DNA from: an uncultured virus (IMG/VR IMGVR_UViG_3300009784_000011)
Taxonomy: Duplodnaviria > Heunggongvirae > Uroviricota > Caudoviricetes
IMG/VR virus record: IMGVR_UViG_3300009784_000011
Span: 1-64,000 of that record
DNA length: 64,000 nt
Reading direction: 5' to 3' (one strand)
This document shows positions 13,328 to 20,075 of this stretch, one piece after another; positions within the stretch are counted from its first letter, which is position 1; the number at the start of each line of letters is the position of its first letter. Below the pieces are notes generated by a model. The model was not told the DNA's origin, did not search any database, and worked only from the letters and a program-made list of their open reading frames with translations. A program made the position numbers and the translations under genes.

Positions 13328-14680
13328 ATGATCGTCGGTGTCGGTACGGGCCGCTCAGGCACCTTGACGTTGGCACTATTGCTGGATGGTTGTCAGAACA
13401 TCCGGTGCGTGCATGAGTCCGAGCCGCTGTTGCCGTGGGAGATCGACGGCCGCGCCTACAAGGACAAGCTCGCCGAGATCAAGGCCGAGCCGGGCCGCGC
13501 CGAGGTCGGCTTCTACTGGCTGAACTACCTGCGGCCACTGCTCAAGGACGTTCCCGACGTGCGGATCGTGGCCACCCGGCGCGACCCGGTGAAGACCGCC
13601 GAGTCCTTCGCGGCCTACATGGGCCCCAAGCGCAACCACTGGCTGGATCACAAGGGTGTGGGCTGGGAGCTCGACCCGCTGTTCGACGACTGTTACCCCA
13701 CCTACGAGATACGCGACCGCCACCAGGCGATCGTGCGCTACTGCACCGAGTACAACGCCGAGGTGGACCGGCTGCGGCGCAAGTACCCCTCCCAGGTGCT
13801 GGTGGTCAAGACCGAAGACCTGGGCACCATCGCCACCCAGCAGAAGATTTTCGAGCACTGCGGCATCCCCAAGTCCGATCGCTGCTATGTCGCCGGCATC
13901 CACCACAACAAGCGCAAGGAAACCCGCGACCAGCAAGACGAGCTGGACCTCACGGCGCTGTCGACCACCGGGGACTCTCAGCGCATCCCGCTCTACGTCG
14001 GCACCTACCGCAAGCGCAAGCACATCGAGACCTGCCTGCGCAGCATCGACGCCAACGTCAAGGGCTACGACGAGATCATCTTCCTCGACGACTCCGGCGA
14101 CCGGCTGCACACCAAGTGGCTCCTGCAGTACGGGCAGGTGGTGGCACTGCCCAAAGTCGGGCACAGCGTCGCGATGCGGGCACTGTGCGCGCACGCCAAC
14201 GGGCGCCAGCTGGCCTGGATCGAGGAGGACTTCGAGATCACTGGCTCGATGGACCTCACTGAGATGAGCGAGCACCTCTACCACCGGCCCTACCTGGCGC
14301 AGATCGCGCTGCTGCGCCAGCCGTTGTGGGCCGACGAGAAGCGCCTCGGCGGCGTGCTGGAGGCGGTGGCCGCCAACGGCTGGGCGGTGCGCTATGTGCT
14401 GGGGCTGTGGGAATCGCGTGGGTGGTTCACCTGCAACCCCTCCCTGTGGCGCGGGCATGTCACCGAGCTGGGCTGGCCCAATCCCAAGCGGGTGGCCGGG
14501 CGCGACTACAGCAGCGAATGGATCAAGAGCAAAGAACTGCGCGAACTGTTCATGGGCGAGAAGCTGCCCTCGGACTGGATGGCGCCGATCAGCGAAAAGG
14601 AGCCGCGTGGCTACTCGTTCGGATTCCTCGACGGCATCCGGTGTCACCACTGGGGACACCGGGAGGGCCACGGCTATTAA
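13328..14680 (+). CDS. sulfotransferase-like / GT2 glycosyltransferase fusion
   Basis: N-terminal GTGRSGT PAPS-loop, HE and RRDP..TAES motifs; C-terminal VGTYRK...CLRSI...IIFLDDSG...WIEEDF GT-A fold. Confidence 0.75.
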   Translation: MIVGVGTGRSGTLTLALLLDGCQNIRCVHESEPLLPWEIDGRAYKDKLAEIKAEPGRAEVGFYWLNYLRPLLKDVPDVRIVATRRDPVKTAESFAAYMGPKRNHWLDHKGVGWELDPLFDDCYPTYEIRDRHQAIVRYCTEYNAEVDRLRRKYPSQVLVVKTEDLGTIATQQKIFEHCGIPKSDRCYVAGIHHNKRKETRDQQDELDLTALSTTGDSQRIPLYVGTYRKRKHIETCLRSIDANVKGYDEIIFLDDSGDRLHTKWLLQYGQVVALPKVGHSVAMRALCAHANGRQLAWIEEDFEITGSMDLTEMSEHLYHRPYLAQIALLRQPLWADEKRLGGVLEAVAANGWAVRYVLGLWESRGWFTCNPSLWRGHVTELGWPNPKRVAGRDYSSEWIKSKELRELFMGEKLPSDWMAPISEKEPRGYSFGFLDGIRCHHWGHREGHGY

Positions 14681-14726
14681 CCGGCGTCGGCTCAAGGACC
14701 GTCATCGCCAGCTTTGCGACGGGTCG

Positions 14727-14840
14727 ATGGCGGTCCCCACGGAGTACGAGGACGACGAGTACGCGATCTGCCTGGCCTGCGGCCGGCGGCTGTGGGTCGG
14801 GCGCAACGGCAAGATTCCCAACCATTGGCCGTCGAAGTGA
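14727..14840 (+). CDS. small zinc-ribbon-like peptide
   Basis: MAVPTEYEDDEYAICLACGRRLWVGRNGKIPNHWPSK; GTGA overlap with next gene. Confidence 0.45.
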   Translation: MAVPTEYEDDEYAICLACGRRLWVGRNGKIPNHWPSK

Positions 14841-15520
14841 AGCCCTCGGTGCAGGTGGTCATCCCTTGGCGGCCCAGTCCCGAGCGGATGGCCGCCTTCG
14901 AGCGGACCATGCAGTTCTGGAACTACGTCGGCTGGCCGGTGGTGTTCGGCGACTCGCCGGCCGACAAGCCGTTCTCGCTGGCCCAGGCCCGTAACCGCGG
15001 GGTGGCCAAGACCTCGGCGCAGATCGTGGTGGTGTCCGACGCCGACACCATCCCCACGCTGCAGAACGTGGTGCGCGCGGTCGATGATCCCGGTCCCGGT
15101 GTGACCTGGGTGTTTAGCCACTACCGGCGTATCCACCAGGACTGGGTGGACAAGCCCGACCTGATGGGCGCCCCGCTGATCGAGAGCTGGGAGAACGGAC
15201 TGGGCGGCTGCTATGTCTGCAAGCGGTCCACCTACTTCTACATCGGCGGCACCGATCCCCGGTTCATCGAGTGGGGCTTCGAGGACACCTCGATGTATGC
15301 GGTGGCCTCCACGCTGGCCCAGGCCCGCCGGATGCCGGGCGTGATCTTTAGCTTTGAGCACGACGGCGGTTGGACCAAGCGCGGCAACCAGGCCAACCGG
15401 CCGCTGTTCACGCCGTATTACAGCGCGCGGCGCAAGCCGTGGATGATGCGTGCGCTGCTGCGCCAGCGCGCACAGGCCGACCCCACCGACCCGGCCAACA
15501 TCTACTGGGGACGCCGGTGA
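14837..15520 (+). CDS. glycosyltransferase (GT-A; galactosyltransferase-like C-terminus)
   Basis: VVIPWR, FSLAQARNRGV, SDAD (DxD), GGTDPRFIEWGFED. Confidence 0.85.
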   Translation: MKPSVQVVIPWRPSPERMAAFERTMQFWNYVGWPVVFGDSPADKPFSLAQARNRGVAKTSAQIVVVSDADTIPTLQNVVRAVDDPGPGVTWVFSHYRRIHQDWVDKPDLMGAPLIESWENGLGGCYVCKRSTYFYIGGTDPRFIEWGFEDTSMYAVASTLAQARRMPGVIFSFEHDGGWTKRGNQANRPLFTPYYSARRKPWMMRALLRQRAQADPTDPANIYWGRR

Positions 15521-15687
15521 GCGATGTCATTCCCAATGATGGCCGCTACATCGTTGTCCGCACCGGCCAGCCGGAGGTCTTACTGGTGGCCTGCGCGGAG
15601 TGCGGTGTGCTGCTGTGGGACATCGACGCGCACTACAAACACGCACATTTCGTTCCACCCCATCCACCGCGCGGCGTGTCGCACTAA
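15517..15687 (+). CDS. small zinc-finger-like protein
   Basis: VACAECGVLL...HYKHAH; GTGA overlap. Confidence 0.5.
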   Translation: MSDVIPNDGRYIVVRTGQPEVLLVACAECGVLLWDIDAHYKHAHFVPPHPPRGVSH

Positions 15688-15835
15688 TCGCCGCGGGCGC
15701 CGTGGTAACACTGTTTCTCACGGAATCGCGTAGATAAAGCCGGCACGGCTGAAGCCGCGACTCCCACCCTGGCACAGGGGCCCTGATTGATCAGCGCCCT
15801 GTTCCGGGCGCTGAATTCCGAGTTAAGGGAATGAA

Positions 15836-17323
15836 ATGCCCGAGTTGCTAGAGGAGCGAGATCCGCTCAATCCGGCCGGGGGCATGGAGGCGTACCTCAA
15901 ACGTATGCTCCAGCGCCGGGCTCAATTAGTCCGACAGCGCGAGGCGTTGCAGGAGAAGGCCGAGGCCGTCCTGCTCGAAGCGCGCAGTGCGGGCCGCGAC
16001 CAGCTTGGTCCTGAGGAAGATTCCGAGCTGCGCAAGTACACCAAGCAGATGAAGGCCCTGGGCGCCGACATTGCCGGCCTCGACGAGCGTATCGAGGAAA
16101 CCCGGCAAGAGGTCGAGCGCACCGGCTCCATCAGCAAGAACCTCGCCAAGATTCGGCAGGCCGAGACTGCGGTCACCCGGGTCCGTGAGATGGCGGTCTA
16201 CCAGCAGGGTGACAAGCGCCGGTCCTATATGCAGGACTTGGTGAAGATGAGCCTCAACCTGGACGCCACCGGCGAGTGCCGGGAACGCCTGATGCGGCAC
16301 GCACAGGACGTTGCCACCAGCGATGACTACCGGGAGTTCCGCGACATCGACCGGGTTGACGGTACCGGCGGTTACGCCGTGCCGCCCGTCTGGCTGATGA
16401 ATCAGTACATCGAGTTGGCACGTCCGGGCCGGGCGTTCGCCAACCTGGTGCAGCGCCAGCCACTACCCGGCGGTACGGACTCGATCAACATCCCCAAGCT
16501 GTTGACCGGGACCGCGGTCGGTATGCAGACCGACAACCAGGACGTCACCGAGGTGGACCTGACGGACACCTTCGTGAACGCTCCGGTACGCACCATCGCC
16601 GGCCAGCAAGGGCTCGCCATCCAGTTGATCGACCAGTCGCCCATCGCGTTCGACGACGTGGTGTTCCGCGACCTGGTGGCCGCGCACGCCGCCGCTGTGG
16701 ACCAACAGGTTCTACAGGGCGACGGCACAGGCGGGCTTGGCCCGGGCAACCAGGCCGGCGGCCAGGTGCTCGGCGTGGACTACACCCCGGGGATTCTCAC
16801 AGTGGCAGCCGCCACGGTGGACATCCAGGGCGTGTACTCCGCGATCGCCAACGCCATCCAGCAAGTGCACACCACGCGTTTCCTGCCGCCCGAGGTGATC
16901 GTCATGCACCCGCGGCGATGGGGCTGGTTCCTGAGCCTGCTGGACACCACGCAGCGCCCGCTGTTCCTGCCCAGCGCCAACAGCCCGATGAACATCGGCG
17001 GTCTGTTGACTGCGGTGGCAAGCCAGCAGGTGGTCGGCCAGATGCACGGCCTGCCGGTGGTCACCGACCCGAACATCTCCACTGGGACGCCGCCTACCGG
17101 CGCACCGTTGGGGACGCCGGGCGATGGCGAGGACACCATCTACGTCGCACGCGTGAGCGACTTGGTTCTGTGGGAGGGTGGCATCCGCGCTCGCGTGCTG
17201 CCGGAAACCCGCGCACAGACCCTGACAGTCCTCCTGCAAATCTATTCGTACATCGCGTTCAGCGCAGGGCGGTATCCACAGTCCGTCGCGGTCATAACAG
17301 GTTTGACCCCACCGACCTTCTGA
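15836..17323 (+). CDS. major capsid protein (HK97 fold, N-terminal coiled-coil scaffold domain)
   Basis: Coiled-coil N-terminus, GGYAVPP, VDQQVLQGDG, IVMHPRRW, GLPVVTDPN. Confidence 0.93.
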   Translation: MPELLEERDPLNPAGGMEAYLKRMLQRRAQLVRQREALQEKAEAVLLEARSAGRDQLGPEEDSELRKYTKQMKALGADIAGLDERIEETRQEVERTGSISKNLAKIRQAETAVTRVREMAVYQQGDKRRSYMQDLVKMSLNLDATGECRERLMRHAQDVATSDDYREFRDIDRVDGTGGYAVPPVWLMNQYIELARPGRAFANLVQRQPLPGGTDSINIPKLLTGTAVGMQTDNQDVTEVDLTDTFVNAPVRTIAGQQGLAIQLIDQSPIAFDDVVFRDLVAAHAAAVDQQVLQGDGTGGLGPGNQAGGQVLGVDYTPGILTVAAATVDIQGVYSAIANAIQQVHTTRFLPPEVIVMHPRRWGWFLSLLDTTQRPLFLPSANSPMNIGGLLTAVASQQVVGQMHGLPVVTDPNISTGTPPTGAPLGTPGDGEDTIYVARVSDLVLWEGGIRARVLPETRAQTLTVLLQIYSYIAFSAGRYPQSVAVITGLTPPTF

Positions 17324-17351
17324 CCTGCGGTTTTACAACTAAATAGCCTCA

Positions 17352-17400
17352 AACAGCAAACTCCCCGGTAGTCAATCAGACTCCGGGGAGTTTGCTTGTT
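17352..17400 (+). terminator. long hairpin after capsid gene (probable terminator)
   Basis: AGCAAACTCCCCGG...CCGGGGAGTTTGCT inverted repeat with inner AGTC/GACT stem. Confidence 0.75.
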
Positions 17401-17472
17401 AGCAAACCTCCCAGCAAACCGATTGCGTTGTGGGACACAAAATTGTCGCAGCCCGCTGTTAAGTTGCGCGGC

Positions 17473-18165
17473 ATGGATGATTCCCTGTTCTCGTACAGCG
17501 ACCTTGATCCAGACCAACGAATCCCAGTGTGGGGGCCAGAGGGTCTGTTGCCACTGGGATTAGATGATCCTGACGTCGCGGCCGAGGGCATCCACTTCTG
17601 TCATAAGTGCAACAGAGTGAAGTTGCACTCGGAGTTCTACATTCGGCCAGGAAGTGGCCGAGTTCAATTCCCCTGCTCGGACTGTATAAGGGAGTACCAG
17701 AAGCGATACGCCGGAAACGATGAGTTCAATGCTCACCGACGAAAGCAATATGCGAATGACCCCGAGAAGCAGGCGAAGAATCGCGAGCGCCACCAACGCC
17801 TAATGCTCGATCCCGCATACCGGGCAGCGCAAGTGGAGAGGGTCAAGAAATGGGTCGATTCCAATCCCCTTCGCCGCTGGGCGACTCAGCTCAGCAGGTA
17901 CAGCATCACGCCTGATGATTACGAAAAAATCTTCGCGGCGCAGGGAAGCGTCTGTGCAGGATGCTTAGCTCCCCCGAACGGCAGGAAGCTGGCTGTGGAT
18001 CATAACCACCGGTGCTGCGACGGCGACTTCTCATGCGGGGCGTGCATCCGCGGCCTGCTATGCGATACCTGCAATCGCCGGATCTTGGGTAATGCGGAGA
18101 AGAATCGCACCGTCGAAGAAGCAACTGCGGTGCTGCGTAGGCTGGCTGACTATCTGGAGGCTTGA
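17473..18165 (+). CDS. endonuclease VII-domain protein (probable free-standing homing endonuclease)
   Basis: YSITPDDYEKIFAAQGSVCAGC...LAVDHNH...IRGLLCDTCNRRILG; N-terminal CxxC pairs; ATG 7 nt after TAAGTT -10 box; more AT-rich than flanks. Confidence 0.88.
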   Translation: MDDSLFSYSDLDPDQRIPVWGPEGLLPLGLDDPDVAAEGIHFCHKCNRVKLHSEFYIRPGSGRVQFPCSDCIREYQKRYAGNDEFNAHRRKQYANDPEKQAKNRERHQRLMLDPAYRAAQVERVKKWVDSNPLRRWATQLSRYSITPDDYEKIFAAQGSVCAGCLAPPNGRKLAVDHNHRCCDGDFSCGACIRGLLCDTCNRRILGNAEKNRTVEEATAVLRRLADYLEA

Positions 18166-18189
18166 CGCCGCCTACGTTCTGACCTGCGG
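18159..18189 (+). repeat. recoded duplicate of capsid gene 3' end (GLTPPTF-stop + CCTGCGG)
   Basis: ggc ttg acg ccg cct acg ttc tga cctgcgg vs ggt ttg acc cca ccg acc ttc tga cctgcgg at 17300-17330. Confidence 0.85.
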
Positions 18190-18197
18190 AAACGCTG

Positions 18198-18235
18198 AAA
18201 ACTGGCCGCCACGATCAAGTGGCGGCCAGTTTTTT
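18198..18235 (+). terminator. rho-independent terminator
   Basis: AAAACTGGCCGCCAC-GATCAA-GTGGCGGCCAGTTTTTT. Confidence 0.9.
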
Positions 18236-18260
18236 GTGTGGCTACCGATACCCTTAACTC

Positions 18261-18647
18261 ATGGCCGCGCCCGTTCCCAACCGCTGGGCCAACGATCCCC
18301 ACCCGCGCGGCGTCCCATTACTGCCAGCGCCCCCGCCAGTCTGGGACCCGTGTAGTCACGGTGGCGACCTGGCGGTACACGGCACCGGAGAGTGCGCTGA
18401 CTCCGCCAACCCCGCCACCGCTGTCACGGCCGAGGTTCGCTGGATGGCCGATCCCGGCCTGGGCCCCGAACCGGCCCGTGCCGCGTCAGTGCTCTATATC
18501 GCCAGCCTGGCCGCGGCCGGCAGCGGGGCGACGTTCTTTGCCCGCGACGCGATGTTCGGCGACGTGGAGCCGGTACTGCAAACCGCGCCGACGCCCACGA
18601 TGGGCAAGCTGCTGTTCTTCCCCACGGATCACAAGCGCCTCGGCTGA
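18261..18647 (+). CDS. hypothetical protein (head region)
   Basis: 128-aa ORF; ATG 6 nt after TACCCT -10-like box. Confidence 0.6.
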   Translation: MAAPVPNRWANDPHPRGVPLLPAPPPVWDPCSHGGDLAVHGTGECADSANPATAVTAEVRWMADPGLGPEPARAASVLYIASLAAAGSGATFFARDAMFGDVEPVLQTAPTPTMGKLLFFPTDHKRLG

Positions 18648-18671
18648 ACATCGACACGGACAGACCAGCCG

Positions 18672-19151
18672 GTGGCATTGCCTCCCACCGGCTGGTCCCG
18701 CGTTTACGCTTATGTCATGGCAGAGCTTTACGACATGGCCACCGAGGATGTCCGCGATCCCGATAGCGCCCGCGCCCAGGCGATCAAGACAGCGGTACGC
18801 AACTACAAAGCGGCCCACAAGAAGCCACCCGAGCACTTGCAGCGGCTGGCCGACGAGCTCAACGGCCGGCCCGAGAAGAAGCCTGAGCCGGAGCCCGAGC
18901 CCCTCCCGGAGCCAGAGCCCGAGTCCGAACCCAAGCCGCAAGATTTCAGCGTCAGTGTCGATGGCGTGGATCAAGGCCCTGGGCAGGTGGACACGCGCCC
19001 CGACGACAGTCATCCCGGTGAACAGATCACGCCCGAATCCGGGCACAGGCCCAGGTCCAAGCCCAAGCCCGACGAACCGATCTTCCATGAGTTGCCCGGC
19101 CCTCTCTCGTCCCGCCGACCCCGCCGTAAACCCAAGGAGGAAACCAAGTGA
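18672..19151 (+). CDS. hypothetical protein with (PE)n linker
   Basis: 159-aa ORF, KPEPEPEPLPEPEPESEPKP; GTGA overlap with next gene. Confidence 0.6.
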   Translation: MALPPTGWSRVYAYVMAELYDMATEDVRDPDSARAQAIKTAVRNYKAAHKKPPEHLQRLADELNGRPEKKPEPEPEPLPEPEPESEPKPQDFSVSVDGVDQGPGQVDTRPDDSHPGEQITPESGHRPRSKPKPDEPIFHELPGPLSSRRPRRKPKEETK

Positions 19152-19408
19152 CGACTGCCATCAGCACTCCCGAGGGGCCCGTCGACACCGTCAACTACAG
19201 CACCCCCGCTCCCGAGGACGGGACGATCTACCAGCGCGACCCGGCCACCGGCGACGTCTACATCGTGGCCGTCTTCGACCGCAACCCCTACAGCACCGGC
19301 CGTGGCGAGGGCGGCTGGTGCAACCAGACCATCCCGCCGCAGGTGCCACCGCGCACCCCGATTTCGGCGGGCTACACGATGGTCGACGGAAGCTGGACGA
19401 GTGGCTGA
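19148..19408 (+). CDS. hypothetical protein
   Basis: AAGGAGG RBS; overlaps both neighbours. Confidence 0.65.
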   Translation: MTTAISTPEGPVDTVNYSTPAPEDGTIYQRDPATGDVYIVAVFDRNPYSTGRGEGGWCNQTIPPQVPPRTPISAGYTMVDGSWTSG

Positions 19409-20075
19409 GGACGACGAGGAATGGATCGCGGCCCGTAAGGAAGCGGCTCTGCGTGTCCACAAGGACCCGATCCTCGACCTCATCGACACGCGCGACCCGG
19501 ACTGGAATCTCTACGTCCAGCGCGACATCCACTACCTACTGCGCGCGGCCGGCAAGACGATCCGGCAATACTGCGGGTGGCACATCTACCCCAATATCAC
19601 CGAAACGCTCTACGACCAGGAGCTGGGCTCGGGCGGTCGGATCATCCTGCCCACGCTGTTTTTGACCGACGTGCTGTCGGTGAAGCTGCGCTTCGGCTCA
19701 CCCGACCGACTGTTCGAGCTGAGTCCTCACGAGTACAGCTGGTGGCAGAACGGCTACATCATGCCTAATCGCCAGCCCTGGTCCGGGCGCGACTGGACCG
19801 GCTACTACTACGAGCCCGGGCCCACGTTCCTGCCGGTGACCCGGCCCGGCTTCGCCCACGTCACCATCTGTCACGGCTATGACCGGGTGCCTGACGACAT
19901 CCGGCAGGTGACCTTCGAGCTGGCCCGCTGGACGCAGGAGATGCCTATCGGCGGCAACGTGAGGATGATCAGCTCGCCGGGCTTCCGGCTGGCGCTCAAC
20001 CAGGGCATGGGGATGAACCTGAACCCCGACCAGAAGCTACGCCTGGGCAACTACTGCATCGGGAACTTCAAGTGA
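19401..20075 (+). CDS. head-to-tail adaptor
   Basis: LLRAAGKTIRQYCGWHIYP...LPTL...HGYDRVPDDIRQV pattern typical of actinophage adaptors; synteny. Confidence 0.75.
   Translation: MAEDDEEWIAARKEAALRVHKDPILDLIDTRDPDWNLYVQRDIHYLLRAAGKTIRQYCGWHIYPNITETLYDQELGSGGRIILPTLFLTDVLSVKLRFGSPDRLFELSPHEYSWWQNGYIMPNRQPWSGRDWTGYYYEPGPTFLPVTRPGFAHVTICHGYDRVPDDIRQVTFELARWTQEMPIGGNVRMISSPGFRLALNQGMGMNLNPDQKLRLGNYCIGNFK

Follow-up and report, generated by a model that had tools for sequence, protein, structure and literature searches.

Two synonymous ends of a capsid gene flank an Endonuclease VII-type gene in an uncultivated actinobacteriophage: a probable insertion of a mobile nuclease cassette

The question raised by this locus is how a phage can come to carry the end of its major capsid protein gene twice, with an endonuclease gene situated between the two ends. 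The locus lies on a stretch of 64,000 nucleotides (nt) from an uncultured virus (positions 1 to 64,000 of IMG/VR record IMGVR_UViG_3300009784_000011), the whole of which is referred to here as the window. The window is part of a 73-kb virus record, and identical sequence was also found on a longer viral contig, L004 (loci from the collections searched are designated L followed by a number). The source phage is an uncultivated actinobacteriophage, its capsid relatives being Mycobacterium phages and prophages. That the repeat was made by a mobile nuclease cassette inserting into the end of the capsid gene is considered highly probable. The cassette likely entered within the last capsid codons, most likely bringing with it the end that the gene now uses (copy 1) together with a hairpin (T1), and stranding the native end (copy 2) and its hairpin (T2) downstream.

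The capsid gene was found to end at 17300-17330 with ggt ttg acc cca ccg acc ttc tga cctgcgg (GLTPPTF-stop followed by CCTGCGG), and a second copy, ggc ttg acg ccg cct acg ttc tga cctgcgg, was located at 18159-18189. With the preceding A included, the repeat covers 32 nt (Table 1), the two copies lying 859 nt apart and being identical at 27 of the 32 bases. All five differences are at third codon positions and are synonymous, with the stop codon and the next seven bases identical. The stop codon of the endonuclease gene (TGA, 18163-18165) is made of copy 2 bases. In its own frame, copy 2 is preceded by stops four and seven codons upstream (...A-stop-AG-stop-LSGGLTPPTF-stop), so that it is part of no open reading frame (ORF). 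A peptide-degenerate pattern, GGNYTNACNCCNCCNACNTTYTGA, gave two matches in the 64-kb window and none in 100 shuffles, and local alignment of the capsid end to its own downstream 2.5 kb scored 19.5 for the window, with the other 77 distinct contexts and the reverse-complement controls scoring at most 13.5. A chance origin of the repeat is excluded.

A local duplication of the capsid end, by slippage or tandem duplication, with later uptake of a nuclease gene and subsequent divergence, would be in keeping with the shortness of the direct repeat (32 nt) and with its identical 7-nt tail. Against this, all five differences are synonymous, and copy 2 has neither an indel nor an internal stop even though it belongs to no ORF; the chance of five changes in 24 coding bases all falling at the eight third positions is approximately 0.001. 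Decay also looks different, as in the relic at locus L153 (described below), which has two indels. Local duplication is therefore regarded as scarcely credible. The intactness of copy 2 and the purely synonymous nature of the differences indicate instead that the copies diverged as working gene ends in separate lineages and were joined later.

The gene situated between the copies was identified as a free-standing endonuclease gene. It forms an ORF of its own, placed between the capsid gene and its downstream neighbour, and begins 149 nt after the capsid stop, behind a terminator-like hairpin. The longest possible ORF starts at TTG 17392 (257 amino acids), with the ATG at 17473 fitting the N-terminus of the closest homologue, that of locus L053. 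The Endonuclease_7 family (PF02945) was matched with 64.8 bits (cut-off 23.6) over residues 167-256 of the 257-residue ORF, and PHROG_2633, endonuclease VII, was matched with an E value of 9e-22. An N-terminal CxxC...CxxC zinc ribbon and a linker are followed by the Endonuclease VII His-Me finger domain, in which D176, H177, H179 and N201 align with D40, H41, H43 and N62 of T4 endonuclease VII, and cysteines 161, 164, 197 and 200 with C23, C26, C58 and C61, residues that we take to be the catalytic residues and zinc cysteines of the T4 enzyme. The catalytic and zinc positions are invariant in 11 of 11 family members with the exception of position 178, which is N in the window protein, whose motif reads VDHNH, and D in the other ten, as at the aligned D42 of the T4 enzyme. 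As judged from these features, the gene is an intact one of the Endonuclease_7 (His-Me finger) type. No counterpart of the C-terminal part of T4 gp49 was identified, as only residues 9-63 of the 157-residue T4 chain align. The GC content of the gene is 0.57 and its GC content at third codon positions (GC3) 0.65, compared to a GC content of 0.66 for the window and a GC3 of 0.84 for the capsid gene. Its C-terminus (…ADYLEA) is the shortest among the 11 aligned family members, which appears to fit a junction near the natural end of the gene. An intron was also considered and rejected, as a search of 16800-18700 against Rfam (E<=1) gave only two chance-level matches and no group I or group II model.

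Each copy of the capsid end was found to be followed by a stable terminator-like hairpin, and for both T1 and T2 none of 200 shuffles folded as well. Neither hairpin was listed by a simple terminator scanner, and no sigma-70-like promoter was found in 15500-19500 by promoter scan. T1 is predicted to insulate the nuclease gene from capsid transcription, while T2 is proposed to be the native capsid terminator. The original prediction, made from the sequence of the window without database searches, had described the repeated and synonymously different capsid end, the overlap of its second copy with the endonuclease stop, the hairpin after each copy and the endonuclease VII identity of the gene, and the results above bear out all of these. 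A 12-mer, ACCTGCGGAAAC, that is shared by the flank of copy 2 and the hairpin before the nuclease gene of L027 was dismissed as a coincidence, since other loci have it at unrelated positions. A conserved hairpin-like element (GACCCCCGCACCTG.GG..ACAGGCCGGGGG.ATGGCC) was observed just before the nuclease start in L024 (4182-4249), L082 (5553-5622) and L027 (3690-3730), where it may serve translational control of the nuclease; no such element stands out in the window.

Table 1. Coordinates of the features of the capsid-endonuclease locus in the window
Feature	Position	Strand	Evidence
Major capsid protein gene, HK97 type, 495 amino acids	15836..17323	+	Pfam Phage_capsid E 1e-14; PHROG major head protein E 7e-72
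Capsid gene segment, possibly co-converted, lower GC3, boundary uncertain	17165..17298	+	Analogy with the ~400-nt L046/L047 tract; GC3 p 0.24
Copy 1: working last 7 capsid codons, stop and CCTGCGG; proposed incoming allele	17299..17330	+	Sequence comparison
Hairpin T1 (GCAAACTCCCCGG...CCGGGGAGTTTGC), terminator-like, 17-bp stem	17352..17400	+	-37.9 kcal/mol, z -6.5
Free-standing endonuclease gene, 230 amino acids from ATG 17473	17473..18165	+	Pfam PF02945 E 7e-18; PHROG endonuclease VII E 9e-22
Copy 2: stranded capsid end, same 7 codons, stop and CCTGCGG; proposed displaced native end	18158..18189	+	Sequence comparison
Hairpin T2 (AAAACTGGCCGCCAC...GTGGCGGCCAGTTTTTT), intrinsic-terminator-like, followed by T6	18197..18234	+	-38.4 kcal/mol, z -7.2
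Next gene, 128 amino acids, no assigned family	18261..18647	+	GC by codon position 0.72/0.60/0.81

Relatives of the window were sought using megablast and tblastn against phage records, with the capsid, nuclease and next-gene proteins compared to viral_contigs, the capsid protein also compared to metagenome_contigs and genome_contigs, and an alignment of the nuclease family searched against viral_contigs. Capsid relatives were thus gathered from viral contigs, metagenomes and genomes, and 72 distinct capsid-end contexts, each with 700 nt or more of downstream sequence, were surveyed for the gene following the capsid gene. A nuclease gene was found directly behind the capsid gene in 21 of these 72 contexts (13 Endonuclease_7, 5 NUMOD4/HNH_3 and 3 PHROG_374 'HNH endonuclease'), the usual neighbour otherwise being a HeH/SAP-domain protein followed by a head-tail adaptor. 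The slot after the capsid gene is thus a hot spot for mobile nucleases of at least three families. Loci with a NUMOD4/HNH_3 gene or a PHROG_374 gene as the first ORF after the capsid gene are L005, L011, L020, L036 and L080, and L029, L030 and L042; the PHROG_374 proteins of the slot are 246-252 amino acids long and have no Pfam match. At L041, 156-263 nt past the capsid stop, a stretch of 43 residues that is 46.5% identical to the C-terminal part of the window nuclease was observed (tblastn E 4.6e-4), which, with no intact nuclease ORF there, looks like a decayed remnant.

The distribution of these nucleases was mapped on a capsid tree from which the last 40 codons were omitted (64 rows with 18 carriers, which predates the recognition of the three PHROG_374 cases). 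Presence of a nuclease required 14 changes on the tree, not fewer than for shuffled labels (mean 15.9, with 84 of 500 shuffles as low). Sister pairs differing in presence or absence are L046/L047, L027/L025, L082/L040, L015/L013, L036/L056 and L037/L041. The nuclease closest to that of the window, that of L053, shares 47% identity with it, no closer relative being found in the collections searched, and the capsid of L053 is among the more distant ones (60%). This distribution bears on the possibility that the nuclease is not, or is no longer, selfish but a working phage nuclease, such as a junction resolvase or a packaging helper, and that the repeat is an old recombination scar. The domain is indeed that of T4 endonuclease VII, the gene is intact, and it was assembled without variants in four of four runs compared (the source sample possibly included). 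Its presence and absence are scattered on the capsid tree, though, with three unrelated families swapping in the slot; conversion tracts accompany nucleases in close pairs, the GC content of the gene is below that of the genome, alignment to T4 endonuclease VII is confined to its N-terminal 55 residues, and L041 keeps just the 43-residue remnant. A non-selfish nuclease is accordingly considered improbable.

Footprints of homing were identified in two close pairs of relatives. Between L046, which carries a nuclease gene, and L047, which does not, the first approximately 990 of 1395 capsid bases are identical, while the last approximately 400 bases contain 58 differences (48 synonymous and 2 non-synonymous codons), with the last five codons including the stop all different. 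Homology between the two is lost 4 nt ahead of the stop codon's end and regained just before the next gene, the L046 cassette with its own hairpin taking the place of the native terminator of L047 and the stop codon of the L046 nuclease lying in native sequence. The same boundaries were found for L027 compared to L025, where every one of the last nine codons, counting the stop, is different and the encoded peptide the same. Furthermore, L046 and L053 have different nucleases and differ at 22 of the 30 preceding codons, yet their last 10 codons and terminator are identical, showing that the cassette moves together with a replacement gene end and terminator. All of the L046/L053 group share the block atc acc ggt ttg acc, and copy 2 of the window starts there. 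Mosaic capsid genes were also observed in the nuclease-free pairs L152/L158 and L152/L156, in which blocks with no differences lie beside blocks with 20-36 differences per 100 nt, so that recombination within the capsid gene is common even where no nuclease gene is now seen.

Co-conversion is clear in L046/L047 and L027/L025; the window itself has no close relative and displays a shift in GC3 with a p value of 0.24. Capsid GC3 is 0.70 in the last 30 codons compared to 0.84 overall, and the last 45 codons differ from the rest (Fisher p 0.017). The richness of the capsid end in A/T-ending codons that had been pointed out in the original prediction is thus correct as a description, although statistically weak: the sliding GC3 check that it had proposed for the capsid gene placed the best change point at codon 443, nt 17165 (0.858 to 0.712), which is not significant after correction for scanning (permutation p 0.24), and an equally strong dip was found at the 5' end of the gene. 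Total GC content drops from approximately 0.66 to 0.54 from around 17200, some 120 nt before the capsid stop, and the low GC ends at T2.

Which of the two ends arrived with the nuclease gene is a separate matter. Copy 2 and T2 are likely the native end. This direction is favoured because T1 is of a nuclease-associated type, because T2 resembles a native terminator, because of the gene order found in relatives and because low GC extends from approximately 17200 to T2. Of the 21 contexts with a nuclease gene, 6 have a hairpin resembling T1 (…CAAACTCCC… stems) after the capsid gene, as opposed to 1 of the 51 without (Fisher p 0.002), a count slightly inflated by L029 and L030 being near-copies of each other; the lone nuclease-free context is L153. 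The 5' arm of T2, AACTGGCCGCC, has the same spacing from the capsid stop as in nuclease-free L025, and T2 resembles the native terminator of that locus. Several relatives have the order capsid gene, T1-like hairpin, nuclease gene, while in the 20 other contexts with a nuclease gene, that gene is never followed by a capsid end.

In the reverse direction, copy 1 and T1 would be the resident end, and the nuclease gene would have been inserted with copy 2 and T2 as baggage from an earlier host phage. The layout of repeat, insert and repeat is by itself silent on which repeat came in, codon usage does not favour copy 2 as native, and the end of L019, whose capsid is fairly closely related, differs slightly less from copy 1 than from copy 2 (two compared to three differences in 24 nt). 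The evidence of gene order and of the hairpins described above runs counter to this direction, which still requires an earlier insertion into a capsid end, merely in another phage, and it is held to be unlikely. The original prediction that the cassette targets the 3' end of the capsid gene and brought in a recoded terminus is hence supported in part, by the hot spot, the footprints and the travelling ends of relatives, and its direction in the window genome itself is probable.

Under the favoured direction, in which copy 1 and T1 came in with the nuclease gene, the nuclease would cut nuclease-free capsid alleles in the conserved end encoding ...ITGLT(A/P)PTF, and the left end of the break would be repaired by copying a nuclease-bearing phage through its capsid end, T1 and nuclease gene. 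The incoming DNA would be joined inside the capsid gene at about codon 488/489 and would consist of its own last seven codons, the stop, CCTGCGG, T1 and the nuclease gene; since the piece carries its own last seven codons, the capsid protein would be left unchanged. The last seven codons of the resident gene, with the stop, CCTGCGG and T2, would be pushed 859 bp downstream, where they would now serve as the stop codon and terminator of the nuclease gene. With a right-hand gene that no other phage was found to share, donor and recipient would have lacked homology on that side of the cassette, placing the right junction at or near the break. That junction would have been formed by short homology or end joining, leaving the two alleles as a direct repeat, and the start of copy 2 would correspond to the break, approximately 24 nt before the capsid stop. 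L046 and L027, by comparison, have their right-hand gene in common with nuclease-free relatives; repair could thus finish by homology there, and the native end was not kept. The recoding of copy 1 would prevent recutting of the rebuilt junction (capsid codons up to 488 followed by copy 1), with copy 2 lacking the left half of the site. Immunity to cutting through the synonymous differences may well be what they provide, although we would place it slightly below an even chance; it would fit the fully recoded ends of the two pairs L046/L047 and L027/L025.

Several observations weigh against the insertion and its favoured direction. The only other locus found with two capsid ends, L153 (4200-4790), is nuclease-free and a distant relative. 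No capsid relative with more than 77% protein identity was found in the phage, viral, metagenome or genome collections. Codon usage does not discriminate between the two copies (log-likelihood difference -0.38), and neither does GC3 provide a significant boundary for an incoming tract, as noted above. Of the 12 other Endonuclease_7 cassettes, only 3 have T1 in common with the window, and the hairpin of L053, the locus with the closest nuclease, differs from T1. Heavy recoding is not universal, as only two of the last eight codons differ in L082/L040. GC3 of the last seven codons is 0.63 beside nucleases and 0.81 elsewhere (p 0.03, a value that carries no phylogenetic correction), and stops other than TGA occur in 12 of 21 nuclease-bearing contexts and 17 of 51 others (p 0.07); in phylogenetically independent pairs both the low GC3 and the non-TGA stop were trends only with respect to the nuclease (median p 0.63 and 0.22, respectively). 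The phmmer match of the window protein to the T4 enzyme is weak when taken alone (E 0.5).

The working capsid end of L153 has many A/T-ending codons, and the T1-like hairpin comes after it. At a distance of 556 nt downstream lies a relic of 61-68 nt that matches the capsid end of L157 at 88.5% identity and is interrupted by two indels. Between the two ends there is an ORF of 74 amino acids without family and non-coding DNA, and no nuclease gene was found between them. Perhaps L153 represents an older event of the same kind, from which the nuclease gene has since been lost. As this relic occurs without a nuclease, a stranded end is no proof of a present nuclease. Alignment of capsid ends with their downstream sequence revealed no decayed second copy in the other nuclease-bearing loci.

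The capsid protein of the window ends with the conserved peptide ...ITGLTPPTF, the C-terminal motif G-L-T-x-P-T-F/W being kept in all relatives read. Named capsid relatives are prophiT37-1 (52% identity), Typha and Bipper (49-50%), and Omega and LittleE (43-44%), and prophage-like relatives were located in Mycobacterium, Mycolicibacterium and Streptomyces genomes. The closest capsid relative, L005, belongs to the group with a NUMOD4/HNH_3 or PHROG_374 gene in the slot, and its capsid end is A/T-rich and recoded. A search of viral_contigs with the pattern TTYTGACCTGCGGAAACGC matched 23 loci, with a capsid gene only at the window's own sequence. The sequence from 16500 to 19000 was found without any difference in contigs of six public runs labelled as termite gut metagenome, from four studies. 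The contigs of the four runs compared all match the window exactly and contain no joint skipping the cassette, and the source sample may be among these runs; as contigs lose rare variants, such identical contigs are uninformative on nuclease-free variants.

The ORF following the cassette (18261-18647), the frame of which is well supported by its GC content at the three codon positions, was matched by no Pfam or PHROG family and by no relative in viral_contigs other than the same sequence; several relatives have in its place an ORF of 61 amino acids, located after their capsid or nuclease gene. Two genes adjoin the capsid gene on its upstream side (13328-15520), one with sulfotransferase and glycosyltransferase domains and the other with glycosyltransferase domains. 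Glycosyltransferase genes adjoin the capsid gene in relatives too, and their position suggests virion glycosylation.

The layout of the window matches that of gene hybrids formed by mobile ORFs in fungal mitochondria, in having an endonuclease gene preceded by an in-frame replacement end and followed by a second end. The nuclease of those hybrids is of the LAGLIDADG or GIY-YIG type and is often in frame with the host gene, neither of which applies to the window nuclease. As described in the portions consulted of the account of Allomyces macrogynus atp6 and of Glomus sp. atp6, atp9, cox2 and nad3 (PMC3630166), the 3' part of an essential gene is invaded by an endonuclease ORF that brings a foreign in-frame C-terminus, and the native one remains downstream; between the two ends the differences are mostly in DNA, with the protein kept, and the direction was checked against a close relative in Allomyces and Glomus. 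Unlike the hybrids in those portions, the window involves a phage capsid gene, only seven duplicated codons and a nuclease of the Endonuclease VII type, encoded by a separate ORF behind a terminator and not fused.

By analogy with the T-even phages, the mechanism may be classed as intronless homing by a free-standing endonuclease with co-conversion, as far as the sections used of PMC2988022 describe it. Shared with that system are the position of the gene between conserved genes and outside any intron or intein, its presence or absence among close relatives and the co-conversion of flanks, here in L046/L047 and L027/L025. According to the same sections, the free-standing enzymes of T4 are GIY-YIG or HNH proteins with cut sites hundreds to thousands of bases away from the gene that encodes them (PMC2988022). 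The capsid-slot nucleases differ from the enzymes described there in that their junctions are at the very end of the neighbouring gene, in that the window keeps a displaced fragment of the target and in being known from sequence alone.

T4 endonuclease VII (gp49; PDB 1e7d, 1en7) shares with the window protein its Pfam family, the zinc cysteines and the D-H-x-H...N motif. Gp49 is a junction-resolving enzyme of 157 amino acids, whereas the window protein has an extra N-terminal zinc ribbon and a linker and shares only the first approximately 55 residues of gp49; unlike gp49, it has the genomic behaviour of a mobile gene. In the Cluster J mycobacteriophage LittleE, the related capsid gene (43%) was invaded by a group I intron with an HNH gene according to the record annotation. 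LittleE keeps its capsid intact by splicing, whereas the window has no intron (no Rfam match) and a duplicate gene end instead.

Homing endonuclease genes are described as clustering beside essential phage genes, the capsid gene included, and as marking boundaries of genetic exchange (PMC10448857, in part). Those passages concern T5orf172 and IPA-HNH nucleases of ICP1 and other phages, and no retained duplicate of a target gene end is described in them. A literature search limited to titles and abstract openings likewise found no phage case of a retained duplicate gene end. To our knowledge, entry into a gene without splicing by means of a spare gene end is known only from fungal mitochondria.

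It is conceivable, if somewhat doubtful, that the repeat is more than a by-product and represents the working form of a mobile unit that lives in an essential gene without splicing by means of a recoded replacement end. As both flanks of such a unit are capsid-gene sequence, it could enter any phage with the conserved capsid end, whatever the gene downstream. If this were true, position 18158 would mark the cut or insertion point and the five synonymous differences would be the immunity bases.

Homing endonucleases shape genome exchange among phages, and their targets usually need bench work to find. In the window, a single genome holds a presumed sensitive and a presumed immune allele of the target side by side, so that the sequence itself proposes the target (the ...ITGLTPPTF end), the junction and the protective changes. 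The layout shows how a selfish DNA-cutting gene can enter an essential gene without breaking it. For actinobacteriophages, the contested bases behind the capsid gene and the movement of recoded gene ends matter for capsid phylogenies and for the placing of mosaic boundaries.

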